Shown: positions 7,505-37,486 of the stretch, piece after piece | Layout of the letters: every line of letters starts with the position of its first letter | Numbering within the stretch: position 1 is the first letter of the stretch | From: Alphaproteobacteria bacterium | Lineage (GTDB): Bacteria; Pseudomonadota; Alphaproteobacteria; GCA-2731375 | Reading direction: 5' to 3' | Length of the DNA: 64,000 nucleotides | Assembly: GCA_965232515.1 (NCBI GenBank) | Contig: CBDDPY010000002.1 | Coordinates: 5,664,001-5,728,000, forward strand | Translations under genes and position numbers: made by a program | Notes under the pieces: generated by a model | Seen by the model: only the letters and a program-made list of their open reading frames with translations | What the model was told of the DNA's origin: nothing | Database searches by the model: none

Positions 7505-7510
7505 ACCACT

Positions 7511-11182: not shown

Positions 11183-11253
11183 CCCATTCCGAAGCAACAA
11201 ACCTCACACCATGAATGTGGTGGAAAGGTTTTCAAGTCGCTAATCAAACGCTT

Positions 11254-12555: not shown

Positions 12556-12559
12556 GACG

Positions 12560-12982
12560 CTATCGGCGCAAACCAAGCGCCCGAACAAGCATCAAACGCA
12601 TTTCGCTTACGTGCTCACAGGCTTGCATGAGTTCCCGGCATACTTCTGGCGTCACAGGCAAAGCGCCGGAGTTTGCGGCCTTGGCGAGTTGATTGAGGTT
12701 GCTTGAAAGGCGGGATTGCCCGAGCATCCCCAACGCCTTTGCGAGCGATTTCGCATCGGCCACCGGGCGGGCGTTTCTTGATCGCAATGATCCATCGTCT
12801 TCAAAAAGGAGGCTACGGACATGCACGCCGAGCGGCTTGCCTTTGGCGTCCTCTTGGAGCCGTTTACGCTGCTGGTTCGTTAGGCGAATCGAGAACGGGT
12901 AGGTCTGTTTCCTCTTTTGTGCGGGGCTGGGCGCGCACGCATGCGCCCACACCCCGGCGAGGCCGGGTGTGTCCTTCGGCAT
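12560..12982 (-). CDS. mobC: MobC relaxosome accessory protein
   Basis: PFSIRLT RHH strand and LG...SNLNQLAKAAN motif; start uncertain. Confidence 0.8.
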   Translation of the reverse strand: MPKDTPGLAGVWAHACAPSPAQKRKQTYPFSIRLTNQQRKRLQEDAKGKPLGVHVRSLLFEDDGSLRSRNARPVADAKSLAKALGMLGQSRLSSNLNQLAKAANSGALPVTPEVCRELMQACEHVSEMRLMLVRALGLRR

Positions 12983-13024
12983 TGAAGACTCCTGTTATGT
13001 TGAATGATTTCCACAACAGGATAA

Positions 13025-14459: not shown

Positions 14460-14667
14460 GGCCTCTTTATGCCCCATGCTTGCGTGATGCCGGGCGATCG
14501 CGGGCGCGTCGCCATGTCTCGTCCCGCCCCGTTGTCCCCTGCGTCGTGCAGGGCGCCGCGGCGCGAACCGGCTCAGCGGTAAGGAAAGCAGCAACCGTTC
14601 GTCAGGTTAGCAAGGCCGGTTCGACCGCGTCCAGCGGCGCCGCACCGCCGTCGGCCGGCGGCAGACG

Positions 14668-15801
14668 CTATTCCCGCGTAGCGCCGGGAGGCGGCCTTCG
14701 GCCGAGCAGGCCGGCGGCGATCCCGACGGACATTTGCAGGTGGCGGCCGAGGTCCGGCTTCACCAGCATGCCGGCGGCAAGCCAGAAGAGATAGCGGATC
14801 GTACTGCCGGGGTAGAGGCGGAAGAACCAGAGGCGATTCTGCGCGCTATGCGCGGGCGCGGCGAGCAGACGCAGGGCGTGGGGGGCGTCGTCGACCCTGA
14901 TCAGGTCCCGATGCTTGTCGATCGCGTGCGCGAGGCGGCGACAGCGGTCGCGACAGGCGAAGACCAGCAACAGGATCGCCAGCATGTTGACCGAGACGGC
15001 CAGCAGGTTTTCGCGGCGGCGCGCCTCGAAAAAGGCCGGCCAGTCGATGTCGTCTTCCAGGCAGGTGACGACCGTATGGAGGTCGGCCAGGCTCTTGGCC
15101 CGGACCTTTCCGAGCTCGATGTCGGCGATCAACGACACGATCAGCAGCAGCAGGGAATCCTCGTCCGACAGTACGGCGTAACTGTCGCCGGAAATCGGAA
15201 ACCGTCGCGTCGCCGCCCAGATCCGCGTCAGATCGATGTCGTAGGCCGGGCGCGTGCGGAAACACCAATGCAGGTCGACGGCGACGTCCGCTCGCCGCAA
15301 GCCGATCGCGTGCACGAACCGGCTCGTCAGCATCGCGGGCAGGCGCGGACGACCGTCGTCGTCATAGCCCAATGCCCGCATCGCCGCCCGCAGACGCGGC
15401 AGATCCTCGGGCCGGACCAGAATGTCGAGATCGCGCAGCCGCCGCGCGCCGATATCGCCATAGAAATGCAGGGCGAAGTGGAAGCCCTTGAGCAGGATGA
15501 TATCGATGTCGTGGGTCGCCGCCGTTCGGTGCAGCTCATGCAGTGCGTCGCCCAGCATCCCGGACCGGTCCCGGTCGTTGGCGGCGAAGCCGAGCAGCGC
15601 CATGACCAGCCAGGCGGGCAGGCGGTCCGATGCCTGGCTTCGCTCAATCCGCCAACGCAGATACGCGCCGAGATCGTGGGTCGCGAGGAAGCTGAGAAAC
15701 GCTTCGGACTGGAAGTCCGGCGCCGTGAGCGCGGTCGCGACCGCGTCCCAGTCGCCGCGCGCCGCCGCCGCGATGATCGGAAAATGCGCTTGCCAGGTCA
15801 T
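14668..15801 (-). CDS. Nucleotidyltransferase (NTP_transf_5 family)
   Basis: ILLKG.....FY.....R...DLDILV and VDLHW signatures. Confidence 0.85.
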   Translation of the reverse strand: MTWQAHFPIIAAAARGDWDAVATALTAPDFQSEAFLSFLATHDLGAYLRWRIERSQASDRLPAWLVMALLGFAANDRDRSGMLGDALHELHRTAATHDIDIILLKGFHFALHFYGDIGARRLRDLDILVRPEDLPRLRAAMRALGYDDDGRPRLPAMLTSRFVHAIGLRRADVAVDLHWCFRTRPAYDIDLTRIWAATRRFPISGDSYAVLSDEDSLLLLIVSLIADIELGKVRAKSLADLHTVVTCLEDDIDWPAFFEARRRENLLAVSVNMLAILLLVFACRDRCRRLAHAIDKHRDLIRVDDAPHALRLLAAPAHSAQNRLWFFRLYPGSTIRYLFWLAAGMLVKPDLGRHLQMSVGIAAGLLGRRPPPGATRE

Positions 15802-15831
15802 GGGATCGCCGCGCGCCGCGGTTTCGGCGGG

Positions 15832-16932
15832 CTAGGTCGGGCTCGCGTTTGACGCGGCCTCGGCCAGGATGCGTTTTGCCCGGATCTCCAGGTCGTCCGG
15901 ATCGGCCGCCTCCGCCTGCCGCAGCCATGGAAGTGCGCGCCCGGGCTCGCCCTGGCGCAGCCAGCAAACGCCCATCAGACCCCAGGCCAGCGCGCCGAAC
16001 AGGCGGCGGTCGTAGCCCAGCTCGCTTCGCGCCGGCCCGTCGGGTCCGAACGCCAGCAGCCGGTCGAGGCAGGCCCGCGCCGCGGAAAACCGCCCGGCCG
16101 CCTCATGATGGCGCGCGGTCCACCATAGCACCGACGGGTCGTCGCCGTGGCGGGCGGCGGCTTCGTCCAGCAGCACCGCGGCGTCGGCGAGCGCGACGTC
16201 GGCATCTGATGTGTGCAGGTCCAGCAGATCGGCGTAGATCAGGGCATCGCCGGGCCGGGGATCGCGGCGTCGCAGCACGGCCAGGCCCTGCCGCCAGGCG
16301 CGCTCGGCCGCGGCCGCGTCGCCCAGGCCCCGCTCGGCTTCGCCGAGCGCGTGCCAGAGATAGATCCGCGCCGGATCGGCCTCGACGGCGCGGCGCAGCA
16401 GTGGGTGGTTGCGCCGGTGCTTGGCGTCCAGATTGCCCTCGTAGCCAAGGTGCTCGATGGCCATCGGCGCATCGGTGATCACCGCGTCTTCGGCGGCTGT
16501 GATCCGCTGCAGGTCCGGTACCACGGTTTCGTGGATGACGCCGCGAAACCGGATGTCCGGCCGATTGCGGAACAGGCGGTGCTCGCGATAGGGCGTCAGG
16601 CGGCTGTTGGCGCGAAAGCGGACGCGCGCGGCGACCGCCGATCCATCCCGCAGCACCGGATCGAGCCGGCCATTCAGCGAGACCCGTTCATCGGCGTCGA
16701 TGTAGAGAATCCAATCGCCCGTCGCATGGGCGAGCGCGGTGTTGCGGGCGCGCGAAAAATCATCGCGCCAGGGTTCGCGCACCAGGCGCGCGCCGTGCGC
16801 AACCGCGATGTCGGGTGTACGGTCCCGCGACCCGGTATCGACCACCACGACCTCATCGGCCACGGCGGCGATACTGTCCAGGCAGGGGCCCAGATGTTCT
16901 TCCTCATCGCGGACGATAAGGGCCGCGCTCAG
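15832..16932 (-). CDS. GT2 glycosyltransferase with C-terminal TPR repeats (SunS-like architecture); start uncertain
   Basis: The frame extends upstream of the track ORF as LSAALIVRDEEEHL...DTGSRD...DDFSRARN...YIDADE...IHE, followed by helical repeats. Confidence 0.8.
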   Translation of the reverse strand: MSAALIVRDEEEHLGPCLDSIAAVADEVVVVDTGSRDRTPDIAVAHGARLVREPWRDDFSRARNTALAHATGDWILYIDADERVSLNGRLDPVLRDGSAVAARVRFRANSRLTPYREHRLFRNRPDIRFRGVIHETVVPDLQRITAAEDAVITDAPMAIEHLGYEGNLDAKHRRNHPLLRRAVEADPARIYLWHALGEAERGLGDAAAAERAWRQGLAVLRRRDPRPGDALIYADLLDLHTSDADVALADAAVLLDEAAARHGDDPSVLWWTARHHEAAGRFSAARACLDRLLAFGPDGPARSELGYDRRLFGALAWGLMGVCWLRQGEPGRALPWLRQAEAADPDDLEIRAKRILAEAASNASPT

Positions 16933-16976
16933 CCGTCCGTTTTGGCCGGCCGCGGCGGTGTCACGGTGTTGCGGGC

Positions 16977-17144
16977 TTACGACTGGTTGGAAGCCTGCGC
17001 CGCCGCCGGACGTGACATCAGTCCGGACATGGTGAACGTGGCAACGGCCGGCGCCACGAATCCGGCCTTTGCGACTTTCCGCATGAACTCGCGGCGAGCC
17101 GGTGACACGCGTGAAATCACGTCTTCCCGTTTTACATCAGACAT
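16977..17144 (-). CDS. 55-aa putative RiPP-like precursor peptide with a twin-arginine motif (absent from the ORF track)
   Basis: Hand translation: MSDVKREDVISRVSPARREFMRKVAKAGFVAPAVATFTMSGLMSRPAAAQASNQS*. RBS AAAGGGGG; lies between the kinase and GT2 genes. Confidence 0.8.
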   Translation of the reverse strand: MSDVKREDVISRVSPARREFMRKVAKAGFVAPAVATFTMSGLMSRPAAAQASNQS

Positions 17145-17188
17145 AGGACATGCCCCCTTTACGAGCGGTCAGACAATACAGAAGGCTA

Positions 17189-17217
17189 ATATTACGAGTT
17201 TTCGGCAGATTGCTCAA
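17189..17217 (-). promoter_or_regulatory. Putative sigma70 promoter for the peptide gene
   Basis: TTGAGC-N17-TAATAT on the minus strand, about 45 bp before the ATG. Confidence 0.5.
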
Positions 17218-17218
17218 G

Positions 17219-18040
17219 TCAGCCGGCGAACGCGGCCTCCAGTTGCGGCACGGCGTCGGCCACGTCGCCCAACACCAGTTCGTAGCCGCCGGCCGCGCCG
17301 AGCCGGCTTGCCGATGCGACCAGCACGTCCCCCGCTTCGCCCCAGCCCAGCCAGCTTTCCAGCAGGCGCTGAATGATCTGGAAGGGCGGACAGTGCGTCA
17401 GGCTGGTGGCGCCGCCATGATTGGGCGATATCGAGATCACGGCATCGACCGGACCGAGATCGATGCGCCAGTCGAACCCCTGGACGCCGGGATCGAGGGC
17501 GGAGATGTCGACCTCGCCCATCGACTTGCGCGGCAGGCTGTCGAGCGGCCGCCGCAGTTCCGGCACGTGGCGCTCGGCACCCGGTTTCAGGTGAAAGTTG
17601 CGCGGAAACGCCATGGTCCGGCCATCCCGCTCGAGCACGAACTCGTCGCCGTCGACGCGATGGCCGGCATACAGCAGGCGCGTCGCGAGCGTCGTCTTGC
17701 CCGCGCCCTTGTCGCCCAGAAACAGCAATCGGCGGCCGTTGACGGTCGCGAGCCCGCCGTGCAGCAGGGTCCAGCCGGCGAGGACATAGCGCTCCATGGT
17801 GCGGCGGTGAACGCGGCCGTAGACCACATGCAGCACGTCCTGTGCGGTCGCGACGTCGGCCAGCGGGTCGCCTTCCTCGAAGATCTCGTAAGGACCGATG
17901 CCCCGCACCTCGTAGCGCAGCGTCTTGCGTACGGATACCGGTTGGCGGGCCTTGGTGGCGAGATAGCGGAACGTGTCGGCGAGATCAGGATCCCGGTGCC
18001 CGATCTCGACGCGGCAGCTTAGGATCTGGAACGAGATCAA
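17219..18040 (-). CDS. HprK-related P-loop kinase (peptide kinase-like)
   Basis: LLHGG...LFLGDKGAGKTTL...VDGDEFV...AFPR. Confidence 0.8.
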   Translation of the reverse strand: MISFQILSCRVEIGHRDPDLADTFRYLATKARQPVSVRKTLRYEVRGIGPYEIFEEGDPLADVATAQDVLHVVYGRVHRRTMERYVLAGWTLLHGGLATVNGRRLLFLGDKGAGKTTLATRLLYAGHRVDGDEFVLERDGRTMAFPRNFHLKPGAERHVPELRRPLDSLPRKSMGEVDISALDPGVQGFDWRIDLGPVDAVISISPNHGGATSLTHCPPFQIIQRLLESWLGWGEAGDVLVASASRLGAAGGYELVLGDVADAVPQLEAAFAG

Positions 18041-18044
18041 CCCG

Positions 18045-18326
18045 CTACGCGGCCGAAGTAACGACCAGCACGCCTTCTTCCACGAGCTGCTTCAGCCCGG
18101 TCTCGACGTCGTCCAACGGCGGCGCGTCGAGCGAATGCAGATCGGCCATCGCCGCCGCCAGCTCGGCGGCGCTCGACGCACCGTCACAGAGCTCGAACAG
18201 CGCGCCGGCGGAGAAGTTAAGATGGTGCACGCGGTCGTTCGCCGGATTGAAGACGACGAGCCCATCCTGGGTCTCGTGCACCTCCAGGTCGGCGGCGCGG
18301 GTGTATTTCGGCGCGTCGGCGGACAT
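18045..18326 (-). CDS. PqqD-family protein / RiPP recognition element
   Basis: 93 aa with the pattern DGLVVFNP...VHHLN.SA..LFELCDG......LA...DV...L.QL.EEGVL. Confidence 0.9.
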   Translation of the reverse strand: MSADAPKYTRAADLEVHETQDGLVVFNPANDRVHHLNFSAGALFELCDGASSAAELAAAMADLHSLDAPPLDDVETGLKQLVEEGVLVVTSAA

Positions 18327-18351
18327 GGGCGGTTTACTAGCACAGGAATCG

Positions 18352-19605
18352 CTAATTTGCATCCGGCCCGGCCGCCAGGTCGGCGATGGCGGCGGCGACC
18401 GTTTCGGCGTCGTGGTGGTCCGCGACAAAGCGGGCGGCGTTGGCCGACAGCCGGCCGGCAAGGCTGGCGTCCGTCAGGATCCGCCCAGCGGCGTCCACCA
18501 GGGCCGCGTCGTCGTCCGCGATCAACAACTGATCGCCGTCGCGGATACCGAGACCGGCGGCGGCGGCCGGCGTTGCCGCCACCGGCAGGCCGTGCGCGAA
18601 GGCCTCGAGGATCTTCAAACGGCTGCCGCCACCGGCGCGCAGCGGCACCAGGGCCAGATCGGCGCGCCGGTAAAACGGCGTCAGATCGGGGATGAAGCCA
18701 TGGACCTGGACCCCGGCATGCCCGGCCAGCCGCGTCGCGCCTGCCCCGGCGCCGATGATGTGCAGTTCCGCGCCCCGACAACGGCGGCGCAGGGCGGGCA
18801 GGATGGCGGTGGCGAGGCGCTCGGCCGCATCCAGATTGGGCAGATAGTCAAGGTTGCCAATGAACAGCACGGATGGCGCTCCGTCACCGGGCCGCTGTTC
18901 TTCTGCGCCGATTGCCGTCCCGACAGCATTGGGCACCGTCGTCACAGCGGCCAGGCCGTGACGCCGGCGCAGGGCATCCGACTCCAGATCGCTGGCGGTC
19001 GCCACATGATCGAACCAGCCGAGCGTGTGCTTGGCCAACCTGGCATAGGCATCGGCTTCCGCGGTCGTGCGCGCCGCGGCATCGGCCTCGCCGCGTTGCC
19101 GATGCAGGTCGGCGATGGCGGTCAGGGTTGCTGCGTCATCCTCATCCAGGTCGAGGATCAGGCGGGCGCCGCACCCACGGTACGGCAACACGGTGCCGGC
19201 GATGTAGAGTCGCATGACCCAGACCAGATCGAAGGTCTCGCCGGCGAGTTCGCGGGAGACGGCATCGGGGCAGGCAAGCCGGGCGCGGTTGGGCAGCGGC
19301 TGTGTCGCCGCGACGACGGCGCGGCCGCTCGGGTCGGCGAGCCAGCGGCGCGCGGCGTCCGTCGGCGCCGGCAGCGGCACGAAGAACGCGCGCGCCGAAT
19401 GCTCGGCGGCCCAGCCCATGGACGCCGCATCGGCGCCCGGATCGGAAACGGGCAGCACGGCCGTGGTGAGGTTGTATGCCCGCGACAGGCCCTGTAGCGT
19501 AACGGCGGCCCGCATGGCGAGACCGTTCCCGGTCGGCGCCGGGGCGATGGGGCAGATCAGGAGCGCGCGCGGCCGCGACGACGGCGAACAGTCACGCTGA
19601 ACCAT
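18352..19605 (-). CDS. GT4 glycosyltransferase
   Basis: FIGNLDYLPN, VPLRAGGGSRLKILEAFAHGLPV. Confidence 0.85.
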   Translation of the reverse strand: MVQRDCSPSSRPRALLICPIAPAPTGNGLAMRAAVTLQGLSRAYNLTTAVLPVSDPGADAASMGWAAEHSARAFFVPLPAPTDAARRWLADPSGRAVVAATQPLPNRARLACPDAVSRELAGETFDLVWVMRLYIAGTVLPYRGCGARLILDLDEDDAATLTAIADLHRQRGEADAAARTTAEADAYARLAKHTLGWFDHVATASDLESDALRRRHGLAAVTTVPNAVGTAIGAEEQRPGDGAPSVLFIGNLDYLPNLDAAERLATAILPALRRRCRGAELHIIGAGAGATRLAGHAGVQVHGFIPDLTPFYRRADLALVPLRAGGGSRLKILEAFAHGLPVAATPAAAAGLGIRDGDQLLIADDDAALVDAAGRILTDASLAGRLSANAARFVADHHDAETVAAAIADLAAGPDAN

Positions 19606-20455
19606 GAGTCGAATACCCCGGATCGCCCATTTCGTTTTCGGCCTGCGCGAGCAGCTCGAGCCGTTCCACCTGCTGCATTATCTGGCCATCGAGACCTGCC
19701 GGCGCATCCTAAAGCCCGAGGCCATCTACCTCCACTACCACCATCTGCCGTTCGGCGTCTTCTGGGACGAGATTCGTCCGCATCTGACGCTCCGCCGTGT
19801 CGGCCTGGCGGACGAGGTGTTGAACGCCGACTACGACGAACGGCTGGTGCCCAAGGCGTACCGTTACGCCCACCACGCCGATTTCGTGCGGCTGGAAGCG
19901 CTGGTCGAGTACGGCGGCGTCTATGCCGACATCGATACTGTCTTCGTGCGGCCGCTGCCGGACGCGCTCTATGACGAGAAGTTCGTGATCGGGCGCGAGT
20001 CCGATGTGCCGGACGAACTTACCGGCGCGGTGCGCCCGTCATTGTGCAACGCGCTGCTGATGGCCGAACCGGGCTCGGTCTTTGCCCGTACCTGGCTCGA
20101 CCGCATGGGAGCGGCGATTAACGGCACCTGGAGCAATCACTCGGGCTTCCTGGCCGAGGCCTTGAGCGAAGAGATGCCCGACGAGGTTCGGGTCGAGCCC
20201 GAGGAGTCGTTCTTCGCCGTCCCGTGCACGCCGGAAGGTCTGGAGTCGCTGCTGGGCGAGGGGCCGGTGGACCTGACGCGCAGCTATTCGTTGCATCTTT
20301 GGGCGCATGTCTGGTGGAGCTTCGACCGCCGGGACTTCACCGCGCGGCATGCCGGCGAGATGACCCTGTCGCGGTTGCGGCGGTCGGCCTCGCCGCTGGC
20401 CGAGCTCGTCCGTCCCTATCTGCCCGATATCGATCTCGACGACGTGCGAACCTGA
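19604..20455 (+). CDS. GT32-like DXD glycosyltransferase
   Basis: IPRIAHFVFG, HADFVRLEAL.EYGGVYADID. Confidence 0.8.
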   Translation: MSRIPRIAHFVFGLREQLEPFHLLHYLAIETCRRILKPEAIYLHYHHLPFGVFWDEIRPHLTLRRVGLADEVLNADYDERLVPKAYRYAHHADFVRLEALVEYGGVYADIDTVFVRPLPDALYDEKFVIGRESDVPDELTGAVRPSLCNALLMAEPGSVFARTWLDRMGAAINGTWSNHSGFLAEALSEEMPDEVRVEPEESFFAVPCTPEGLESLLGEGPVDLTRSYSLHLWAHVWWSFDRRDFTARHAGEMTLSRLRRSASPLAELVRPYLPDIDLDDVRT

Positions 20456-20458
20456 ACC

Positions 20459-21655
20459 ATGCCGCAACCGCACGGTCTGAACGTGGTGACGCTGACGCCC
20501 GGCTGCGGCTACGGCGATGCCGGCAGTCAGTATGTCGCGGGGCTGCACACGCTCGGTGTGCCGGTGACCTGGACGCCGACGGTCGCGAACACGGCGGACA
20601 TTCTGCCGTTCGACGATTGCCGCCGCGATCTGCCGAACCCGATCGCCGCCGATCTTACCGCGCTGTGGCGGCGGCCGCTCGATTGCGACGCGATCCTGGT
20701 CAACATCCCGCCGTTCCGTTGGCAGCGCTATTGGCGCCGGGCGGCGCCGGACCTGCGGCCGTTCACCTATATCACCTGGGAGGTCGAGCGTGTGCCCGAT
20801 GACTGGCCGCCGGCGCTCAACCTCTATGACCGCGTCTTCGTGCCGTCGATCTTCAACCGGCAGGCGCTCGTCGCCGGCGGCGTGACGACGGCGGTCGATG
20901 TGGTGCCGCACGTCGCGCGGGACGCGGTCCCGGTTCACGGTGGCCCGCCTTGGGGCAACGTGGCCGACGAGGATTTCGTCTTCTACACGATGGGCATGTG
21001 GACCGCGCGCAAGGCGATGGAGGAGACAATCCGCGCGTACCTGGAGGCGTTCGGCCGCGACGACCCCGTCGCGTTGATCGTCAAGACCGAGGCCATCGAT
21101 CAGATGGCGTACTACGCATTGCCGGCCGACTGGCGCGACAGCGCGCCATCCCAGGTGGCGATGGTCTGGTGGCGCGTGGCGCAGATCCTTGCCGAGTATC
21201 CCGATGCGGCGAAGGTGCATCTGGTCGCGGAACCGGTGTCGCCGCACGAGGTCGATCGTCTGCACACGCGGGGCGACTGTTTCGTGAGTCTGGCGCGGAG
21301 CGAGGGCTGGGGTCTGGGGCCGTTCGACGCGGCGCTGTTCGGCAATCCGGTCATCGTCACCGGCTGGGGCGGACAGCTCGATTATCTCGGTGCCAACGAT
21401 CCACTGTTGGTCCGCTATGAACTGGAGCCGACCTCGGCCTCGGCGCCGGACGGCTATTATCTTCGCGCCGATGACGTCCGCTGGGCGCGCGCCGACCGGC
21501 AACATGCCGGTGCGCTTATGCGCGAGGTGTTCGAGACCAGGGACCGGGCCGGCGCCGCCGCGCGCGAGCGTCAGTTCGAGCTTTGCCGGCGCTACTCGGC
21601 CGACCGCGTCTGCCGGCGCCTTGCCGACCTCATGGGTTACGAGGTCGCCGGATGA
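20459..21655 (+). CDS. GT4 glycosyltransferase (paralog 1)
   Basis: GYG, WE, VPS, RK, RSEGWGL..FDA...GNPVIVTGWGG. Confidence 0.85.
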   Translation: MPQPHGLNVVTLTPGCGYGDAGSQYVAGLHTLGVPVTWTPTVANTADILPFDDCRRDLPNPIAADLTALWRRPLDCDAILVNIPPFRWQRYWRRAAPDLRPFTYITWEVERVPDDWPPALNLYDRVFVPSIFNRQALVAGGVTTAVDVVPHVARDAVPVHGGPPWGNVADEDFVFYTMGMWTARKAMEETIRAYLEAFGRDDPVALIVKTEAIDQMAYYALPADWRDSAPSQVAMVWWRVAQILAEYPDAAKVHLVAEPVSPHEVDRLHTRGDCFVSLARSEGWGLGPFDAALFGNPVIVTGWGGQLDYLGANDPLLVRYELEPTSASAPDGYYLRADDVRWARADRQHAGALMREVFETRDRAGAAARERQFELCRRYSADRVCRRLADLMGYEVAG

Positions 21656-22305
21656 CCGCCGCCACGCAGCCGTTGTTGGCGCCGCGCATCGCCGCCTTCA
21701 TCTCGATCCCGAGAAACGCCAGCCACACGGTCCGAGAGGTCCTTGAGCTGGGCCCCAACCGGGACTTCGAGACCACCGCCTCGCCGGTGATCCACGAGAA
21801 CCATCAGCGAGGCGCGGTGCTTGCCGCGCGCTACGATCTCGAGCCGCTGTTCGTCTTCTGCTTTGTCCGCCATCCCTATCTGCGTTGCCTCTCCTGGTTC
21901 CGCTTTCACCGTGACGTGGAGCCCTATCGACGGTTCAGCTTCGAGCAATGGGTGGCGGCCGGCATGCCGCATCATTGGGGGCGGCAGAACCAGACCGACT
22001 ATGCGGCGAGCGGCGCGACGCCACTGCTGCAGACGACATTCGTTGCCGGTTGCCGGGTTGACTTCGTCGGCCGGTTCGAGACGTTCGACCGGGATCTGCG
22101 GCACGTCGTGGCGGCACTCAACAGCCGTGCCGAAGCCGCCGGGCTTGCGGCGCGATATCGGTATCGGCAGGTTCGCCTCAACAGCACGGTTCCGTGGCCA
22201 CCGCCCGAACGGCTGCTGACGGCGCCGGTGCGTAAAACAATTCAACATTTGCTGGCGGCGGACTTCGAACGCTTCGGCTTCCCTGTCGATACGGTGGTCG
22301 GATGA
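21652..22305 (+). CDS. Sulfotransferase family 2 protein
   Basis: PAPS-binding-like motifs FISIPRNAS and FCFVRHPY.RCLS; DFVGRFE; DFERFG. Confidence 0.7.
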   Translation: MTAATQPLLAPRIAAFISIPRNASHTVREVLELGPNRDFETTASPVIHENHQRGAVLAARYDLEPLFVFCFVRHPYLRCLSWFRFHRDVEPYRRFSFEQWVAAGMPHHWGRQNQTDYAASGATPLLQTTFVAGCRVDFVGRFETFDRDLRHVVAALNSRAEAAGLAARYRYRQVRLNSTVPWPPPERLLTAPVRKTIQHLLAADFERFGFPVDTVVG

Positions 22306-23510
22306 CGGCGACGGGCCGGCCGCCGCGCGGCCTCAAGGTCGTGACACTGACTCCGGGCGGCGGCTATGGCGATGCCGGCTGCCAATATGTCGCGGGCTTG
22401 CATGCGCTCGGGCTTCCCGTTACCTGGACGCCGACCATCCTCGACGCCACCGAACGGCAGGCCGCTGCCCGCAACAAACGCAACCTGCAGAGCGCGATCG
22501 GGCAGGATCTGCTGGCGCTCTGGGATCGGCCGCTCGACTGCGATGCGATCCTGGTGCATATGCCGCCTGTTCAATGGCACGATCATTGGCGGCAGGCGGC
22601 GCCGGATCTGCGGCCTTTCACCTGTATCGCCTGGGAGGTCGCACAGATCCCCGACGACTGGCTTCCGGCGTTGAACCTCTATGAGCGGATTTTCGTGCCG
22701 TCGACGTTCACACGACAGGCGCTTGCCGCAACGGACATCGAGGCGGCAATCGACGTCGTGCCGCACATTGCGCGCGATGTGACGCCGCAATCCGGCGGCG
22801 CGCCCTGGGGCGAGGTGGCCGACGACGATTTCGTCTTCTACGCCATCGGCAGCTGGACCACGCGCAAGGCGATGGAAGAAACGGTCCGCGCCTACCTCGA
22901 CGCCTTCACCGGCGACGACAAGGTCGCGCTGATCGTCAAGACCGGGCCGGTCGACAAGATCGCGCTCTACGCCCTGCCGGACGTACAGCGGCAGAGCGCC
23001 CCACCGCATCATGCGATGGTCTGGTGGCGGCTGGCGCAGATCCTTGCCGACTATGACAATCCGGCCAAGGTGCATCTGATCGCGGAACGGCTGCCCGCCC
23101 GCGAGATCGACCGGCTGCACACGCGCGGCGACTGTTTCGTCAGCCTGTCGCGCAGCGAGGGCTGGGGGCTGGGGTCGTTCGACGCCGTTCTGTTCGGCAA
23201 CCCGGTCATCGTGACGGGCTGGGGCGGGCACCTGGACTATCTGGGCGCGGACTATCCCCTGTTGGTCGGTCATGTTCTGGAAGCGACGTCAAGGGCCGCA
23301 TCGGACGGCTTTTTCAAGGCGGTGCTGGATGCCTGTTGGGCACGCGCCGACCGGGATCATGCCAGCGAGCTCATGCGCCGGGTTTTCGAGGATCGGGCCT
23401 CCGCGCGCGCGATCGCCCGCGAATTGCAGCCGCAGCTTCGGACCCGCTACAGCGCGGACAGGGTTTGCCGGCGTCTCGCCGCGCTGATGGGATTCGAGGT
23501 CGGCGCATGA
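22302..23510 (+). CDS. GT4 glycosyltransferase (paralog 2)
   Basis: Same motifs as 20459-21655 and collinear with it. Confidence 0.85.
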   Translation: MTATGRPPRGLKVVTLTPGGGYGDAGCQYVAGLHALGLPVTWTPTILDATERQAAARNKRNLQSAIGQDLLALWDRPLDCDAILVHMPPVQWHDHWRQAAPDLRPFTCIAWEVAQIPDDWLPALNLYERIFVPSTFTRQALAATDIEAAIDVVPHIARDVTPQSGGAPWGEVADDDFVFYAIGSWTTRKAMEETVRAYLDAFTGDDKVALIVKTGPVDKIALYALPDVQRQSAPPHHAMVWWRLAQILADYDNPAKVHLIAERLPAREIDRLHTRGDCFVSLSRSEGWGLGSFDAVLFGNPVIVTGWGGHLDYLGADYPLLVGHVLEATSRAASDGFFKAVLDACWARADRDHASELMRRVFEDRASARAIARELQPQLRTRYSADRVCRRLAALMGFEVGA

Positions 23511-24505
23511 CGGACAGTCCGATGCCGGCCATTCCCCAGGACCTTAAGTCGACGCGGCTGCTGGTGCTGGCCTGGACCGATCATTTCTTCGGCGCGGACT
23601 ATCTCGATGCGAAGCGTATCGCGAACCCGAACGGGCCCGACATCGAGCTCAGCTTCACCTCCGACCGCGACCGGCTGGACGAGGTCGACGCCGTCTGGTT
23701 CCACGGCCCGTCAATCACCGACCTGCCGCCGCGCAAGCGGCAGCCCTGGGTGCTGATGAGCATGGAGAGCGACGTCAACTATCCGGCCCTGAAGAATCCG
23801 CTGGTGCTGCCTCGGTTCGATCTCTTGATGACCTATCGGCTCGATGCCGACGTGCCGTGCATCTACCCGAACTGGCGGCACTACGGCACGTTTCTCGACG
23901 CCCCGCCGCGACGACGGGGACCGGCCGCGGGCGCGCTGGCCTGCTACATCGCGTCGAACCCGGTCGCGCACCGCGACGACTATGCCGCGGAATTGATGCG
24001 GCACGTGCCGGTCGACAGCCTCGGGTCCTGCCTGCGCAACGCCCGCATCGACGGCTTCGTCGACGGCGGCTGGGCCGACGGCGCCTGGGTCAGCCTGATG
24101 TCGGTGCTGCCGCGCTACAAGTTCTATCTGGCGTTCGAGAACTCGCTCACCACGGACTACGTTACCGAGCGGGTGTTTCACGCGCTGGCCAGCGGGGTGG
24201 TGCCGGTCTACCGCGGTGCCGGCAACGTGCGCGATTTCATGCCCGCCGATGACACCATTATCGACACGGCCGACTTCGCTTCTCCGCGCGAGCTGGCGGA
24301 CTATCTGCGCTACCTGGACCAGGACGATGACGCCTATGCCAAGCATCTGCGCTGGAAGCAGGACGGCTATTCCGACCGGTTCAAGGCTCTGGTCGATCTG
24401 GGCTCGGTCGATCCGCAACACCGAATGGCGGTGAAGCTGGCGCATGGCTGCGATCGTGACTGCCTTTGTGGCGGCCGGATGCGGGCGCCCGGTGTGCTGC
24501 CGTGA
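23507..24505 (+). CDS. GT10 alpha-1,3-fucosyltransferase-like protein
   Basis: SMES, MTYRLDADV, YKFYLAFENS...DYVTER...AL..G.VPV. Confidence 0.85.
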   Translation: MTDSPMPAIPQDLKSTRLLVLAWTDHFFGADYLDAKRIANPNGPDIELSFTSDRDRLDEVDAVWFHGPSITDLPPRKRQPWVLMSMESDVNYPALKNPLVLPRFDLLMTYRLDADVPCIYPNWRHYGTFLDAPPRRRGPAAGALACYIASNPVAHRDDYAAELMRHVPVDSLGSCLRNARIDGFVDGGWADGAWVSLMSVLPRYKFYLAFENSLTTDYVTERVFHALASGVVPVYRGAGNVRDFMPADDTIIDTADFASPRELADYLRYLDQDDDAYAKHLRWKQDGYSDRFKALVDLGSVDPQHRMAVKLAHGCDRDCLCGGRMRAPGVLP

Positions 24506-25284
24506 CGACGGTCCTGGTCAACTATGCGACGGACGACTTCGCGGACTACCAGGCGATCAACAGCCTGACCGGCCGGCTGTTCGGTTTCGACGATTGCCGC
24601 AGCTACGGACCGGACGATCTCGCCCCCGACTTCGCGCGCCGGAACGCCGCAACGCTTGCCGCCGGGCGCGGCGCCGGCTATTGGCTCTGGAAGCCTTACA
24701 TCGTGGCGCGGACGTTGGCGGAACTCGCCGACGGCGATCTGCTGTTCTATGCCGACGCCGCCATGCACTTCGTCAATCCGGTTGCGCCGTTGGTCGATCT
24801 GCTGGACCGGCACGCTCTGGACCTGTTGATCCTGGGCGAGAGCTTCGCAGAGGCGCAGTACACCAAGCGTGACGCCTTTGTCCTGATGCGGGCCGACACG
24901 CCCCAATTTGTCGGCACGCCGCAGCGTTTCGCCAGCTGCTTCATGCTGCGCAAGACGGCCTGGGCCGATGATTTCGCCGCGCGCTACCTCGCCTTCGCCG
25001 AAGACGATCGTATCCTGACCGACCGGGCGAATACCTGCGGCCTGCCCGACTACTCCGACTTCATCGCCCACCGGCATGACCAGTCTATCTTCAGTCTGCT
25101 GAGCAAGCAGGCCGACGTGCCGGTCGTCGCCGCCGACATGATCGCCGGGGGCTTGCCGGATCGCGCGACGCAGATCATCAACCACACCCGCGCGCATCTC
25201 GCGCCAAAGGACATCGTCAAACGCCTGCTGGTGCAGGGCGTGCTGTCGGTCAGCGATCTGGCGGAACTGGCGGCGCCGGCATGA
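24502..25284 (+). CDS. Putative glycosyltransferase-like protein (WKP...HRHDQS; DUF1647-like)
   Basis: RGAGYWLWKPYIV, LFYADA, HRHDQSIFSLL; GTG overlaps the upstream stop. Confidence 0.6.
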   Translation: MTTVLVNYATDDFADYQAINSLTGRLFGFDDCRSYGPDDLAPDFARRNAATLAAGRGAGYWLWKPYIVARTLAELADGDLLFYADAAMHFVNPVAPLVDLLDRHALDLLILGESFAEAQYTKRDAFVLMRADTPQFVGTPQRFASCFMLRKTAWADDFAARYLAFAEDDRILTDRANTCGLPDYSDFIAHRHDQSIFSLLSKQADVPVVAADMIAGGLPDRATQIINHTRAHLAPKDIVKRLLVQGVLSVSDLAELAAPA

Positions 25285-26227
25285 CGTCCGCCAGGGCCGC
25301 GCGCTTGACGCAGACCCAGGGCGTGATGCCGGGCTTGATCCAGTGGCTGTCAGCCGTGCAGCGCTCGAGCCTGCCGCCGCGCCCCTTGATGTAGCCGTTG
25401 TAGTTGAAAGCGATGGCCTCAGGGTTGCGTGTCGCGGCATCCGCGATGGCGGCATGGTCGCCTGGCGCGTATTCCACGTAATCGATGTCGAAGCCGAAGA
25501 TGTCGTGGTTCTCGAACACGGCGTAGCCGTCGATGGGCGCGGGCGGTGGCGGATGCTGAATGTTCCAGATGTTGGTGTGGTGGTGGATGAAATAGAGCAG
25601 GCGCTCCGACCGGATCGCATCGATGGACTTTCCGCCAAGCGCCGGCAGTTGCCCGAGCACATTCCGGCCGCAGACCTTGTCGAGACCGATGATATTGAAC
25701 CGGAAGATGTTCTCGAACAGTCGCACCTGTTTGGTCAGCATATCCGGGCCGGTATTGTTGAAGACATCGGCGAAGGTGACGTCGCGCTCGATCAGGTGCG
25801 ACAGCCGCTTCGTGACATAGCCGAAAAAGGCATGGCCCGGCGGCGCCGCCATCAGGGCGTTGGCGATGATCGTGTCGTCGATGGTCGGCGCGGCCAGCAG
25901 CGACAGATGCACGTCGCCCTCGGCGAGCAGCGGATCGATCGGCTTCAGGCACTCCATGTCGAGGTCGATATAGACGCCGCCATAGTGCAGCAGCATGAAG
26001 TAGCGGACGGCGTCGACCCGCTCGATGTTGTGCTTGTAGCCGTCATAGGTCGGCAGGAACCAGGGATAGTGCTCGGCGATCAGCCGACGGTTGTCCGCGT
26101 CGGTCCAGAGCCAGTGTTGCCAGTCCGGATGGTGCGTCCGCACGGTCGCGCGATGGCGCGCGTAGTCGTCCGGCAGCGTCTCGGTCTTCCAGGTCTGGTG
26201 AATGATCCGGGGGATCGTCTGTTGCAT
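25250..26227 (-). CDS. GT32 (Och1/Sur1-like) glycosyltransferase
   Basis: IPRIIHQTWKT, DAVRYF.L..YGGVYIDLD, TGP. Confidence 0.85.
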   Translation of the reverse strand: MQQTIPRIIHQTWKTETLPDDYARHRATVRTHHPDWQHWLWTDADNRRLIAEHYPWFLPTYDGYKHNIERVDAVRYFMLLHYGGVYIDLDMECLKPIDPLLAEGDVHLSLLAAPTIDDTIIANALMAAPPGHAFFGYVTKRLSHLIERDVTFADVFNNTGPDMLTKQVRLFENIFRFNIIGLDKVCGRNVLGQLPALGGKSIDAIRSERLLYFIHHHTNIWNIQHPPPPAPIDGYAVFENHDIFGFDIDYVEYAPGDHAAIADAATRNPEAIAFNYNGYIKGRGGRLERCTADSHWIKPGITPWVCVKRAALADVMPAPPVPPDR

Positions 26228-26358
26228 GCCGTCGATCTCGTGCGGCGGTCGGCATTGACCGTCGTTCCGGGCATGTCATACCGTCGGCGCGCGCCGCCGT
26301 TCAAGGAGAGTTGACGGCGAGCGATAACGCTGTTCGCGTGTGCGTGGCAGGAGTGGGG

Positions 26359-27339
26359 ATGCGGGAAGGCAAGATCGTCGTCTGCGGTGCGGGCGGCTTT
26401 ATCGGCGGACACTTGGTGAACGATCTGATCCGCCGGGGCTGCACGGACCTCCGGGCGGTCGATGTGAAGCCATTCGACGGCTGGTTTCAGGTCTCGGATG
26501 CGGCTGAAAACATCAGACTCGATCTGCGGCGGCGCGAGGCCTGCCTCGCGGCTCTGGCGGACGCGCGGGTCGTCTACAACCTGGCCGCCGATATGGGCGG
26601 CATTGGCTTCATCGAGTTCAATCGCGCCCAATGCATGCTGAACGTGCTGATCAACAGCCATCTGCTGGAGGCGGCGCAGGAGCTGGGCGTCGCGCGCTAT
26701 TTCTTCACCTCGTCCGCTTGCGCCTACAACGTCGAACTGCAGCGCGATCCCGATGTGACGGCCCTGAAGGAAGCGGATGCTTATCCGGCCATGCCGGAGG
26801 ACGGTTACGGCTGGGAAAAGCTGTTCAGCGAACGCATGTGTCGGCACTTCACGGAAGATTTCGGCCTGCCCACCCGCGTCGCCCGGCTTCACAACATCTA
26901 TGGTCCCTACGGCACTTTTGACGGCGGTCGGGAGAAGGCGCCGGCGGCGATCTGCCGCAAGGTCGCCGAAGCAAAACTGTCGGGGCGGCACGAGATCGAA
27001 ATCTGGGGCACGGGCGAGCAGACCCGCAGCTTCACGAACATCGACGACTGCCTCCACGGCATGCACCTGATCATGGAATGCGATGTGGCCGAGCCGCTGA
27101 ACCTCGGCAGCAACGAGTGTGTCAGCATCAACCAACTGGTCGACATGGTCGAAGACATCGCCGGCGTCCGGCTGGCGCGGCGTTACGATCCGACCGCGCC
27201 GGCCGGCGTCAACGGCCGCAACAGCGACAACAGCCGCATCCAGGCGGTGCTTGGCTGGCAGCCGAGCACGCCGCTTGCCGCTGGCCTGGAGGCGACTTAC
27301 CGCTGGATCTACGACCAGATGGCAGGCAGTTCGGCGTAG
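26359..27339 (+). CDS. GDP-mannose 3,5-epimerase-like NAD-dependent epimerase
   Basis: GAGGFIG, NLAADMGG.GFI, SSACAY, YGWEKL, GGREKAPAAICRK, GRNSDN. Confidence 0.85.
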   Translation: MREGKIVVCGAGGFIGGHLVNDLIRRGCTDLRAVDVKPFDGWFQVSDAAENIRLDLRRREACLAALADARVVYNLAADMGGIGFIEFNRAQCMLNVLINSHLLEAAQELGVARYFFTSSACAYNVELQRDPDVTALKEADAYPAMPEDGYGWEKLFSERMCRHFTEDFGLPTRVARLHNIYGPYGTFDGGREKAPAAICRKVAEAKLSGRHEIEIWGTGEQTRSFTNIDDCLHGMHLIMECDVAEPLNLGSNECVSINQLVDMVEDIAGVRLARRYDPTAPAGVNGRNSDNSRIQAVLGWQPSTPLAAGLEATYRWIYDQMAGSSA

Positions 27340-29878: not shown

Positions 29879-29892
29879 CGCCGCGCGCCGCC

Positions 29893-37483: not shown

Positions 37484-37486
37484 GGC

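Follow-up and report, generated by a model that had tools for sequence, protein, structure and literature searches.

A putative Gram-negative relative of the LPP peptide pathway, with a leader resembling a twin-arginine signal, in an alphaproteobacterial genome

Background

In the lasso peptide clusters for paeninodin and pseudomycoidin, HprK-like kinases phosphorylate the C-terminal Ser of the precursor and a nucleotidyltransferase is linked to glycosylation of that phosphoserine; PsmN is required for the hexose on phospho-Ser. A preliminary description of the present locus cited these precedents, and they match the papers. The closest known system is that of the linear polyphosphorylated peptides (LPP) of Bacillota (2026), where an RRE, an HprK-like kinase and an NTP transferase occur in glycosyltransferase-rich loci, the clusters being located inside capsule loci. 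The LPP kinase polyphosphorylates Ser3 of a core starting AQSN, the Tyr hydroxyl of the RRE-binding motif makes a key hydrogen bond, and the clusters carry a dedicated signal-peptidase-like protease and an ABC exporter. RREs of lasso and LPP systems bind the motif [Y/W]xxPx[L/V/I/F/A].

The cassette treated here shares with LPP the RRE, the HprK-like kinase, the NTP transferase and the setting rich in glycosyltransferases, and differs in that the LPP protease and ABC exporter are missing from it. It had been put forward as a candidate new system; the LPP family, whose module acts on linear peptides, gives it a precedent.

Gene content of the cassette

The 12.7-kb cassette spans positions 14668-27339 of the window, as we call the whole 64-kb stretch of DNA that was analysed. 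Some ten of its genes encode enzymes that handle sugars. Pfam and NCBIfam searches reveal a minus-strand peptide operon facing plus-strand sugar genes. The operon opens with a GT4 glycosyltransferase (18352-19605; Glyco_trans_1_4, 1.6e-23) and continues with a discrete PqqD-type RRE (longest ORF 18045-18461; PF05402, 9e-9), a 273-aa P-loop kinase of HprK/PEPCK fold (17219-18040), a 55-aa precursor peptide gene (P0001; 16977-17144) recognized by translation, homologues and synteny, a GT2 glycosyltransferase with TPR assigned by Pfam (15832-16863, with an upstream extension to ~16932), and a 377-aa NTP_transf_5 nucleotidyltransferase (14668-15801; PF14907, 1.3e-38). This gene run had been proposed from the sequence and is borne out by both libraries, except that the kinase match lies below the Pfam cut-off, where the fold supports the assignment.

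On the plus strand lie a GT32-type (DXD) glycosyltransferase (19604-20455; Gly_transf_sug, 2.2e-9), two paralogous GT4 glycosyltransferases (20459-21655 and 22302-23510) assigned by Pfam and orthologue comparison, between them a Sulfotransfer_2 sulfotransferase (21583-22305; PF03567, 7.2e-6, 26.7 bits against a cut-off of 22) whose true start is probably inside the ORF, a GT10 fucosyltransferase-family protein (23336-24505; PF00852, 1.9e-33; PF17039, 9.7e-11), and a conserved 272-aa protein (24466-25284) that Atlas leads suggest is a GT-A-like sugar transferase. The cassette ends with a second GT32-type glycosyltransferase (25250-26227; Gly_transf_sug, 1.9e-22) and an NAD-dependent sugar epimerase/reductase (26311-27339; PF01370, 1e-38) on the plus strand. 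The facing genes had thus been named correctly as GT32, two GT4, sulfotransferase and GT10; the second GT32, earlier counted with them, is on the minus strand.

Domains of Asn_synthase, transglutaminase, radical SAM, YcaO and Wzx/Wzy/ABC-exporter type number zero in the 20 ORFs of the 13-33 kb region and in 35 other window ORFs, so that their claimed absence holds over this set, and no lasso cyclase or peptidase was found among the scanned window ORFs. The window's sole ABC system, located at 52-57.5 kb, is an importer of the Opp type.

The kinase and the comparison loci

Sequence models recognize the kinase faintly (Hpr_kinase_C at 2.7e-4, 20.9 bits against a cut-off of 33.3; TIGR04352 at 22.8 bits against 200). 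Its AF2 model has a pLDDT of 96.1, and Foldseek searches with that model return PEPCK (E 1.6e-7, TMq 0.49-0.57) and HprK/P (E 1e-5, TMt 0.42), by which the HprK/PEPCK fold is confirmed in the predicted structure. Among the 68 homologues from a sequence search with the kinase, 30 carry the label PF27840, named ScmC in the Atlas.

With the kinase profile we retrieved five related loci (L001-L005), which together with the window form the comparison set; they come from an Alphaproteobacteria MAG, Denitrobaculum, an Acidobacteria MAG, Competibacteraceae and Hyphomicrobiaceae. Common to all five is a GT32 gene diverging from the order GT4, PqqD, kinase, peptide, GT2/TPR. The arrangement is beyond chance, since the peptide has nine homologues and the whole order recurs in 5/5 loci. 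The proposal of a RiPP-like module (RRE, HprK-like kinase, NTP_transf_5) tied to a conserved small precursor and lacking lasso machinery is supported, the peptide being present in every locus.

The precursor peptide

The nine homologues of the small ORF were found in metagenomes (E 6e-10 to 8e-15, among 5.8 billion clusters), and in each of the five loci, which belong to different lineages, exactly one peptide match occurs, directly after the kinase. The leader block is under purifying selection, with pN of 0.12-0.35 against pS of 0.52-0.92 and dN/dS of 0.08-0.28 (computable for 11 of 15 pairs). Because pN lies well under pS and dN/dS is this low, the substitution pattern argues that the 55-aa peptide is a real, translated gene. 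A G-rich stretch upstream of its ATG is a possible ribosome-binding site. Pfam has no family matching the window peptide at E<=10.

With RRxF, a hydrophobic region and AxA, the N-terminal ~49 residues resemble a twin-arginine (Tat) signal. In the window peptide RRxF occupies residues 17-20, [F]xxPxV 29-34 and AxA 47-49, followed by the tail QASNQS; the lasso-type RRE-binding motif [F/Y]xxPx[V/I] is thus placed within the hydrophobic region. The preliminary description had proposed looking for a short RRxF..(F/Y)xxP ORF in homologous neighbourhoods, and all five have one. A profile search with the leader found 258 representative proteins at E<=1e-3. Among the best 150 of these, 135 have the Tat-type RR motif, and 125 of the 135 have [FY]xxPx[hydrophobic] at +12 or +13 after it; the first position of this motif, Y or W in LPP and lasso systems, is mostly F here (114 F, 11 Y). 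Of 131 leaders conforming to a pattern that we defined, 121 continue with [AS]xA.

The Tat appearance could be only apparent, the ~50-residue leader serving the RRE, kinase and glycosyltransferase, and the product being exported by an unlinked transporter or retained in the cell, and cut by an unlinked protease; we regard this as unlikely. Conservation of the hydrophobic region far exceeds that of ordinary signal peptides, which could mean that it serves recognition alone: R17, R18, F20, K23, P32, T36, F37, M39 and G41 are invariant in 15/15 aligned peptides, and to find the last five, within the hydrophobic region, so fixed is common in RiPP leaders but not in signal peptides. The window peptide also falls below the cut-off of every NCBIfam Tat model, matching the Tat part of TIGR02811 at E 0.02, and RiPP clusters often depend on unlinked proteases. 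Against it stand RRxF with K, an 18-residue uncharged stretch and AxA in canonical order and spacing, the frequency of RR and [AS]xA among the relatives just given, and TIGR01409 (TAT_signal_seq), which 2 of 22 scanned members pass and seven more match below threshold. The same leader, moreover, heads DUF11-domain proteins (3 of 27 long members), and DUF11 domains are typical of cell-surface proteins. Finally, no exporter or leader peptidase was found in the window cassette or the scanned ORFs of the five loci, whereas LPP clusters carry both; their absence fits use of the general Tat system and signal peptidase.

The sizes of the best 150 of the 258 relatives (67 of up to 75 aa, 52 of 76-130 aa and 31 longer) bear on a further possibility, that the RRE, kinase and glycosyltransferases serve the glycosylation and secretion of proteins at large, the leader directing them in trans to all that carry it and have N-x-S/T or PNQ repeats in their linker. 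The 55-aa peptide would then be only the smallest client or a primer. The longer members include DUF11-type and Hint-containing proteins, and 10 of the 131 pattern-fitting leaders have tails with 3-10 NQ copies, most as P/G-N-Q repeats. The window's 64 kb and each locus hold, however, a single leader-bearing ORF, and the kinase search gave fewer relatives than the leader search, a comparison between searches of differing sensitivity. We consider such a trans-acting system improbable.

The preliminary description centred on the C-terminal Ser, which comparison shows not to be a conserved terminus: N-x-S closes the chain in only 6 of 15 peptides, the others running 1-14 residues further, while Asn is invariant, within N-x-S/T in 14/15 and with S/T at -1 in 10/15. 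Since the invariant tail residue is Asn and not Ser, the primary tail chemistry might be on Asn. In the wider family the first tail Asn peaks 13 residues past the F.M motif, and tails show N.[ST] in 81/131 against 47 for [ST].N, and NQ in 47 against 3 for QN.

RRE binding

Homologues indicate the conserved ATG at 18326 as the likely RRE start, giving 93 aa, while the longest ORF reaches 18461. The protein scores 29.2 bits with TIGR04353 (cut-off 35); the best PDB match of its profile is the lasso RRE TfuB1 (6jx3, E 0.0013), with LppB (9x8z) at E 0.23 only. The peptide-RRE complex, whose modelling had been suggested, was predicted with a score of 0.53 in 3/3 runs against 0.09 for the best of three controls, with at least 97% contact agreement and partner pLDDT of at least 67. 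In calibration, 58 of 80 solved complexes passed, as did 2 of 110 mismatched pairs; passing scores of <=0.60 came from only 7 of the 80, plus both of these mismatches, so that 0.53 is a pass in the weak band. As lasso RRE-leader complexes are already solved, the pass may reflect memorization by the predictor. The prediction weakly suggests that the RRE binds the peptide.

Sugar enzymes

The GT2/TPR gene lies directly downstream of the peptide gene and has orthologues of 51-65% identity in 5/5 loci. No ATG, GTG or TTG precedes the conserved N-terminal motif in the window copy, only a CTG at 16932. Its PDB sequence matches, GmaR (5.8e-21), ThuS (1.3e-13) and SunS (2.8e-13), show its resemblance to protein/peptide glycosyltransferases. 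The nucleotidyltransferase, placed in the tailoring module by the preliminary description, is present in the window and poorly conserved among loci. NTP_transf_5 members occur in L001, L002 and L004, whereas the 2 kb that follow GT2/TPR in L003 show none; a PDB relative was not found by sequence. Because identity is 24-32% over partial lengths, and position and strand shift between loci, it is a looser cassette member than kinase, RRE, peptide and GT2/TPR.

The operon's GT4 has orthologues in 5/5 loci, as has the first GT32 (64-79% identity). GT10 is found in L001, L002, L004 and L005, the sulfotransferase only in L004, and the 272-aa protein (51-62%), second GT32 and epimerase in L002, L004 and L005. 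A branched, sulfated glycan, as envisaged in the preliminary description, is a speculative product, the sulfotransferase occurring in the window and one of the five loci only. The 272-aa protein has no Pfam or NCBIfam match and a poor AF2 model (pLDDT 60.7); its Atlas leads are capsular polysaccharide synthesis, a Glyco_transf_34 cluster (0.96) and a DUF1647 cluster (0.93), the latter being the sole basis for its earlier label 'DUF1647-like' and the lower of the two. Likewise, of 'GDP-mannose epimerase' only the epimerase/dehydratase family stands, the nearest NCBIfam model being GDP-L-fucose synthase (NF047922), far below threshold (123 bits against 500).

Genes for GT4, GT2, GT32, GT10, sulfotransferase and epimerase are frequent in EPS/LPS loci, the best NCBIfam match of the operon's GT4 is a PEP-CTERM/XrtA-system glycosyltransferase (TIGR03087, 113 bits against 316), and LPP clusters, too, are merely located in capsule loci. 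The locus might accordingly make an ordinary lipid-linked or soluble glycan, with peptide, RRE and kinase as a separate neighbour, such as a small Tat-exported regulator. This is the least probable of the alternatives. No priming phosphoglycosyl transferase, flippase, polymerase or ABC exporter was found in the window cassette and the scanned ORFs of the five loci; glycosyltransferase genes and peptide module move as one block between flanks that are unrelated to one another, in distant lineages; the peptide gene lies between the kinase and the GmaR/SunS-like enzyme in all five; and the two operons have overlapping start codons, those of the GT32 on the plus strand and the GT4 on the minus strand (CATG, 19603-19606).

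Proposed pathway

We give about an even chance to a Gram-negative RiPP pathway of the LPP kind whose leader also acts as a twin-arginine export signal. The observed base is the genes, families, folds, synteny, selected peptide and motifs; what we infer on it, from RRE binding through every chemical step and the modified residue to Tat export and cleavage, would run as follows. The 55-aa precursor would be made in the cytoplasm, where the RRE would bind [F/Y]xxPx[V/I] within the hydrophobic region, probably masking the Tat signal as Tat proofreading chaperones do, and offer the tail to the tailoring enzymes. The kinase would phosphorylate a tail Ser/Thr adjoining the invariant Asn (-1 or +2), and the GT2/TPR and/or NTP_transf_5 enzyme would add the first sugar. 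GT4, GT32, GT10 and GT-A-like enzymes would extend the chain, probably with fucose, and in some loci the sulfotransferase would add sulfate. Thus phosphorylated and glycosylated, the bulky product would exit by the general Tat system, and housekeeping signal peptidase I would cut after AxA to leave a glycopeptide of ~5-15 residues.

The earlier idea of the peptide as primer and export tag fits the sequence. The cassette is most likely an undescribed Gram-negative cousin of the LPP family, and its product most likely a small exported peptide decorated with sugars.

Gene content and layout

The cassette lies in DNA of 65–69% G+C. ORFs were chosen by the pattern of G+C across codon positions and then scanned with Pfam and NCBIfam. 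In transcription order, the minus-strand run begins with a GT4 gene (GT4a, 18352–19605), followed by a PqqD-family gene (longest ORF 18045–18461, PF05402 at 9e-9; a homologue-conserved ATG at 18326 gives 93 aa), a gene for a P-loop protein with a sub-threshold HprK match (17219–18040), the 55-aa precursor ORF (16977–17144), a GT2 gene with TPR repeats (15832 to about 16932) and lastly an NTP_transf_5 gene (14668–15801). We refer to the PqqD-type protein as the RRE (RiPP recognition element) and to the P-loop protein as the kinase. The plus-strand run starts from the CATG at 19603–19606 and encodes a GT32-type protein (GT32a, 19604–20455), a GT4 (20459–21655), a Sulfotransfer_2 protein, another GT4 (22302–23510), a GT10 and a 272-aa protein without a family. 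A second GT32-type gene (GT32b, 25250–26227) follows on the minus strand, and the last gene of the cassette, beyond it, is an NAD-dependent epimerase.

The 55 window ORFs scanned contained no lasso cyclase or peptidase, radical SAM, YcaO, flippase, polymerase or exporter domain. The preliminary description had likewise reported no lasso cyclase, radical SAM, YcaO or exporter, and its gene list was correct save three details. PF00733- and PF13471-type domains were found neither in these 55 ORFs nor in the scanned ORFs of five related loci. Among the scanned ORFs of these loci and in the cassette there was also no peptidase domain, the SipW-type signal peptidase I included, and no MsbA-like ABC exporter.

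The divergent GT4 and GT32 genes begin on opposite strands inside the single CATG, and their starts overlap at the equivalent position in loci L001, L002 and L004 (tblastn). Such shared starts leave zero intergenic space for promoters, which must therefore be within the neighbouring coding sequences. A promoter and terminator scan of 14400–20600 gave nothing above shuffles (0 promoters versus 0.6 expected; 2 terminators versus 2.7).

Conservation of the block

A kinase profile from a 12-sequence alignment, run against one genome per species, yielded five loci (L001–L005), the window's genome not among them. The hosts are an Alphaproteobacteria MAG, Denitrobaculum, an Acidobacteria MAG, a member of the Competibacteraceae and one of the Hyphomicrobiaceae. 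When window proteins were used as tblastn queries, GT32a (64–79% identity), a gene of the type of the two plus-strand GT4s, GT4a, the RRE, the kinase and the peptide were all found in five of five loci, as were GT2/TPR orthologues (51–65% identity). Two contigs end early, that of L003 inside the plus-strand-type GT4 gene and that of L005 within GT2/TPR. By tblastn, GT10 was present in all four loci extending that far; the 272-aa protein, GT32b and the epimerase in L002, L004 and L005; and a sulfotransferase orthologue in L004 only, among the five. NTP_transf_5 (PF14907) occurs in the window, L001, L002 and L004, at 24–32% identity over partial lengths and with varying position and strand; none was found in L003 within 2 kb up to the contig end.

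The flanks differ in each locus, including cbb3 oxidase, sirohaem and molybdopterin genes and a GntR regulator, with an amidohydrolase and a V-type ATPase in the window, and no exporter or peptidase was found among the flanking genes of the window or any of the five loci. Judged from these alignments, the cassette travels as one block.

Some loci carry additional genes. In L002 an AT3 acyltransferase fused to an SGNH domain (13435–15360) lies beside the cassette; AT3-SGNH fusions acylate glycans outside the cytoplasm. An FkbM-type methyltransferase lies between GT2/TPR and NTP_transf_5 in the accessory region of L001 (12844–14016).

In the window itself, positions 1–13000 have a G+C content of 41–55%, as against 65–69%, and hold mobile-element and defence genes: an RNase_H_2-domain protein (4773–6275), SIR2_2 (6206–7504) adjoining a HerA-type ATPase (7511–9382), Fic (9654–10775), a relaxase (11254–12588) and MobC (12560–12982). 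The stretch resembles a mobilisable element that has integrated a single gene away from the cassette. A V/A-type ATPase gene set (A, B and I subunits, DUF2764) directly adjoins the cassette at 27345–34834, and an arginine deiminase pathway cluster lies at 36545–42619 (carbamate kinase, ornithine carbamoyltransferase, arginine deiminase and a DcuC-type carrier). For the ATPase A subunit (788 aa) and for arginine deiminase (848 aa), the longest ORF probably starts too far upstream.

The precursor peptide

The 55-aa ORF encodes MSDVKREDVISRVSPARREFMRKVAKAGFVAPAVATFTMSGLMSRPAAAQASNQS. Nine homologues of 54–62 aa (E 6e-10 to 8e-15) were retrieved from 5.8 billion protein clusters by a word-indexed search. 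The preliminary description proposed to look for a conserved short ORF in homologous clusters, and one is present in five of five loci, directly after the kinase gene and 21–36 nt before the GT2/TPR gene. In six-frame translations, a 15-peptide profile hits each locus, and likewise the window, exactly once (E 2e-30 to 5e-26; next E 2.9). In the leader block, pN is 0.12–0.35 against a pS of 0.52–0.92 per site, and dN/dS, computable in 11 of 15 pairs, is 0.08–0.28. By this comparative evidence the small ORF is a genuine gene, and a conserved one.

Nine residues are invariant in the 15-sequence alignment: R17, R18, F20, K23, P32, T36, F37, M39 and G41. The N-terminus consists of a polar, charged n-region followed by S/A-R-R-x-F-[LVMI]-[RK]-K; after the RR motif come 18 uncharged residues, in many cases a c-region Arg, and finally A-x-A, usually with Gln next. 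The window peptide, with A-R-R-E-F-M-R-K, 18 uncharged residues and AAA, matches the Tat-type pattern applied in this analysis, which follows TATFIND: S/T-R-R-x-F-L-K, an uncharged h-region and an AxA site. Library models respond less clearly: Pfam at E ≤ 10 gave no TAT_signal and no meaningful family for the 15 peptides, while TIGR01409 (TAT_signal_seq) gave no match for the window peptide, two of 22 family members above the cut-off and seven sub-threshold. The only NCBIfam response of the window peptide is to TIGR02811, over its Tat part (E 0.02). The Tat consensus is SRRxFLK, according to the part of the source consulted (PMC3712460).

Within the hydrophobic stretch lies F/Y-x-x-P-x-V/I. 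The motif bound by lasso and LPP (linear polyphosphorylated peptide) RREs is given in the excerpted source as [Y/W]xxPx[L/V/I/F/A] (PMC13381572).

The tail after A-x-A has 4–17 residues. Its Asn is invariant; N-x-S/T is found in 14 of 15 peptides, with S/T at −1 of the Asn in 10 of 15. The C-terminal Ser, which the preliminary description took as the target, is not conserved, since the peptide ends exactly in N-x-S in only 6 of 15. Two candidates for the modified residue can be set beside known systems. Modification of the Ser at −1 of the Asn would parallel the LPPs (AQ-S-N); alternatively, it could fall on the S/T at +2, which is better conserved, is terminal in 6 of 15 and would parallel the targets of lasso kinases. 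The invariant Asn, for its part, may serve recognition or may itself be the residue that is modified. A role of the tail as an N-glycosylation site for NGT/GT41 or an oligosaccharyltransferase is retained as a variant only, there being no GT41 or OST gene in the cassette.

Cassette enzymes and the predicted RRE complex

The kinase was modelled from a 31-sequence alignment with pLDDT 96.1 and pTM 0.92. Its fold matches ATP-dependent PEP carboxykinases (E 1.6e-7, TMq 0.49–0.57) and HprK/P (1kkl; E 1e-5, TMt 0.42), which SCOP places in one PEP carboxykinase-like P-loop superfamily. By sequence it scores sub-threshold against the HprK models of Pfam and NCBIfam, and its profile reaches HprK only at E 0.0039. 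The precomputed annotation of 30 of 68 kinase homologues includes PF27840, labelled ScmC in the Atlas, where a neighbouring cluster reads 'putative HprK-related kinase A'; ScmC is a name linked to the SynChlorMet cassette.

The GT2/TPR protein is similar in sequence to GmaR (5.8e-21), ThuS (1.3e-13) and SunS (2.8e-13), which glycosylate proteins or peptides on Ser, Thr or Cys; against the SunS equivalog model it scores 46.6 bits, where the cut-off is 350. At the start of its gene (16863–16977) there is no ATG, GTG or TTG ahead of the conserved N-terminal motif. All five orthologues start at an ATG that precedes the equivalent Leu by 2–3 codons; the window has GGA CGG CTG there. Possible explanations are initiation at the CTG, a sequencing error, or a gene that is impaired. 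NTP_transf_5 had no PDB relative by sequence. The 272-aa protein gave a poor model (pLDDT 60.7, four sequences) and, on Atlas leads only, is probably a GT-A-like transferase.

The best PDB match of the RRE profile was the lasso RRE TfuB1 (E 0.0013), ahead of PqqD proper (0.08), LppB (9x8z; 0.23) and TbiB1 (0.59). Complex prediction for the RRE and the peptide, as suggested in the preliminary description, scored 0.53 in three of three runs with own alignments (A5, A4), against 0.09 for the best of three controls; at least 97% of contacts coincide between runs, with a partner pLDDT of at least 67. Of 80 solved complexes 58 attain the pass mark, and of 110 mismatched pairs 2 do; the present prediction attains it as well, but in the weak band: only 7 of those 80 solved complexes pass at or below 0.60, as do both passing mismatches. 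Because similar lasso complexes are already solved, the pass may also be a matter of likeness only. The model weakly suggests that the RRE binds the peptide.

A wider leader family

Searching 1.84 billion representatives with a leader profile gave 258 hits at E ≤ 1e-3, nine of them at E ≤ 1e-10. Among the best 150 of the 258, a Tat-type RR motif was present in 135 and the aromatic-xxP motif at +12/+13 in 125 (F 114, Y 11); 67 were of up to 75 aa, 52 of 76–130 aa and 31 longer. The family so defined comprises at least 258 sequence clusters and has no name in any of the scanned libraries.

A stricter leader pattern was matched by 131 of the best 150, and the other 19 were excluded from tail counts. 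[AS]xA follows within 20 residues in 121 of the 131. In the tails, N.[ST] occurs in 81 versus 47 with [ST].N, and NQ in 47 versus 3 with QN. The first Asn falls 6–30 residues past the F.M motif in 114 members, with a peak at 13; S/T is at +2 of it in 60 of these 114 and at −1 in 31. Ten of the 131 have 3–10 NQ copies, most as P/G-N-Q(-S/T) repeats, and such tandem tails suggest a repeated modification site.

Repeat units include FPNQT, GNQT and PNQH, with up to 10 NQ copies (P0129, P0196, P0125, P0176, P0104, P0165 and others), and one relative has Trp-rich GPW repeats between GNQT units. A domain scan of 27 long members found DUF11 in three, Hint in one and nothing in 23. Nine relatives of about 190–210 aa (P0127, P0133, P0137, P0146, P0175, P0192, P0212, P0223 and P0226) share the leader and a common downstream G-Y-V-G-P segment; they have no Pfam family and appear to form an unnamed family of secreted proteins. 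P0079 and P0087 weakly match TIGR04117 (Cys-Xaa-Xaa-Xaa repeat radical SAM target protein) in the leader region (E 0.017 and 0.066), which may link the leader to other PqqD/ScmC-type cassettes or may be chance.

Comparison with known systems

LPPs were described by Popov et al. (Nat Commun, May 2026; PMC13381572). Their precursors, of 35–200 aa, combine a conserved YxxP leader with C-termini that vary, and the kinase polyphosphorylates Ser3 of a core starting AQSNWK; the family is said to be restricted to Bacillota, and the final product was left unidentified in that study. In the same text the terms Proteobacteria, Pseudomonadota, twin-arginine, Tat and signal peptide never occur.

In both systems the precursor is linear, with an N-terminal leader that is conserved and a C-terminus that varies. 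Both also have a discrete lasso-type RRE (beside the precursor in five of five loci here) with an aromatic-xx-P motif as its established or putative target, an HprK-like kinase and a locus rich in glycosyltransferases, and both lack a lasso cyclase. The cassette kinase, HprK-like by fold, is set beside LppK by description; the PF14907 gene is a candidate counterpart of the uncharacterised NTP transferase of LPP clusters (LppN) and of PsmN. Leader removal by signal-peptidase chemistry, putative in the cassette, is another likeness, and the LPP core AQSN with phospho-Ser3 resembles the cassette junction A-Q-(A)-S-N. By analogy, the cassette appears to have LPP logic.

LPP loci have a SipW-like peptidase and an MsbA-like exporter, whereas the cassette has neither; the LPP leader reads YxxPxVLxHQxIxFETxxS, whereas the cassette leader has only aromatic-xxPx[V/I], mostly with F (114 of 125, the others Y), lacks VLxHQxIxFET and looks like a twin-arginine-type signal. 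The core has 4–17 residues versus 45 in LppA, the RRE is remote from LppB (E 0.23), a GmaR/SunS-like GT2/TPR and a fixed GT set belong to the conserved block, unlike in LPP, and the hosts are Proteobacteria and Acidobacteria rather than Bacillota. Because three defining LPP features were looked for and not found (the SipW-type peptidase, the MsbA-like exporter and the leader motif), we keep the cassette outside LPP, and it is best filed as an LPP-like variant.

Lasso kinases phosphorylate the C-terminal Ser of the precursor, the addition of one or two hexoses to that phosphate depends on PsmN, and some Firmicute lasso clusters also have a putative sulfotransferase, as far as the excerpts of these papers extend (PMC8498205, PMC6993621). 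The cassette resembles paeninodin and pseudomycoidin in its HprK-homologue kinase, putatively acting on a precursor Ser, and in having an NTP transferase gene, and resembles lasso clusters in its B1-type RRE and the occasional sulfotransferase. Lasso clusters have an Asn-synthetase-like cyclase, a B2 peptidase and an ABC exporter, of which the cassette has none; its product must be linear, unlike lasso peptides, and the lasso terminal Ser contrasts with an N-x-S end in only 6 of 15 of its peptides. The observation in the preliminary description is confirmed and the feature real; its interpretation, a lasso-type tailoring module acting on a linear peptide, is supported in part, the terminal Ser not being conserved.

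SunS, ThuS and GmaR share with GT2/TPR a GT2 catalytic domain followed by a helical or TPR region, and a gene adjoining the presumed peptide substrate. In glycocins, however, the acceptor is a Cys or Ser in a disulfide-stapled helical peptide served by a C39-ABC transporter; the cassette has no such transporter, and its peptide has no Cys and no helix-loop-helix core.

The HPr-rel-A system (TIGR04352–04355) and ScmC also combine an HprK-related P-loop protein, a PqqD-family protein and a small peptide. The window proteins score below its cut-offs (kinase A 22.8 versus 200; PqqD_rel_X 29.2 versus 35), and the window cassette lacks the radical SAM/SPASM partners. No literature on SynChlorMet, ScmC or HprK-related kinase cassettes was found among the matches listed.

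The signals served by the Tat chaperones TorD, DmsD and NapD have the same SRRxFLK-type motif (PMC3712460, PMC3316669, both in part). The analogy would have a small cytoplasmic protein hold the hydrophobic core of the signal until maturation ends. The proposed chaperone of the cassette has a PqqD/RRE fold, not a TorD fold, and its predicted cargo is a few residues plus a glycan rather than a cofactor enzyme.

Interpretation

The two LPP parts missing here, protease and exporter, are just those that would become dispensable if the Tat signal and its AxA site were genuine. Tat carries folded, bulky cargo and would suit a peptide bearing a glycan built in the cytoplasm. Tat chaperones bind the h-regions of signals, according to the excerpted source (PMC3316669). 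With the RRE motif placed within the h-region, a bound RRE would in addition mask the signal until the tailoring steps are complete.

A joint reading, which we hold to be possible but rather doubtful as a whole, is that a Tat signal has been recruited as a RiPP leader and a PqqD-type RRE serves as proofreading chaperone. A phospho-, fuco- and sometimes sulfo-glycan would be built by a multi-enzyme line in the cytoplasm on a tail of 5–15 residues at [SAGP]-N-x-[ST], and Tat would export the finished glycopeptide with no lipid carrier, flippase or dedicated exporter; hundreds of small proteins would share the leader, some with tandem PNQ[ST] repeats. Literature searches joining Tat signals with RiPPs, HprK with RiPPs, PF14907, or cytoplasmic glycosylation with Tat left this arrangement undescribed, and the RRE survey literature, in the parts covered by term search, gave no kinase- or Tat-linked cluster.

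Packing of precursor, RRE and kinase with a fixed, co-inherited GT set makes the cassette a compact system for reconstituting a complete product. If the leader does function as a Tat signal, no RiPP leader in the searched literature would precede it in taking the general Tat route; the glycan would be put together on the peptide before leaving the cytoplasm, with no lipid carrier involved, and an RRE would act as a Tat proofreading chaperone. Should the joint reading be true, Gram-negative bacteria would have a widespread but so far overlooked way of glycosylating and secreting products under the direction of a leader.
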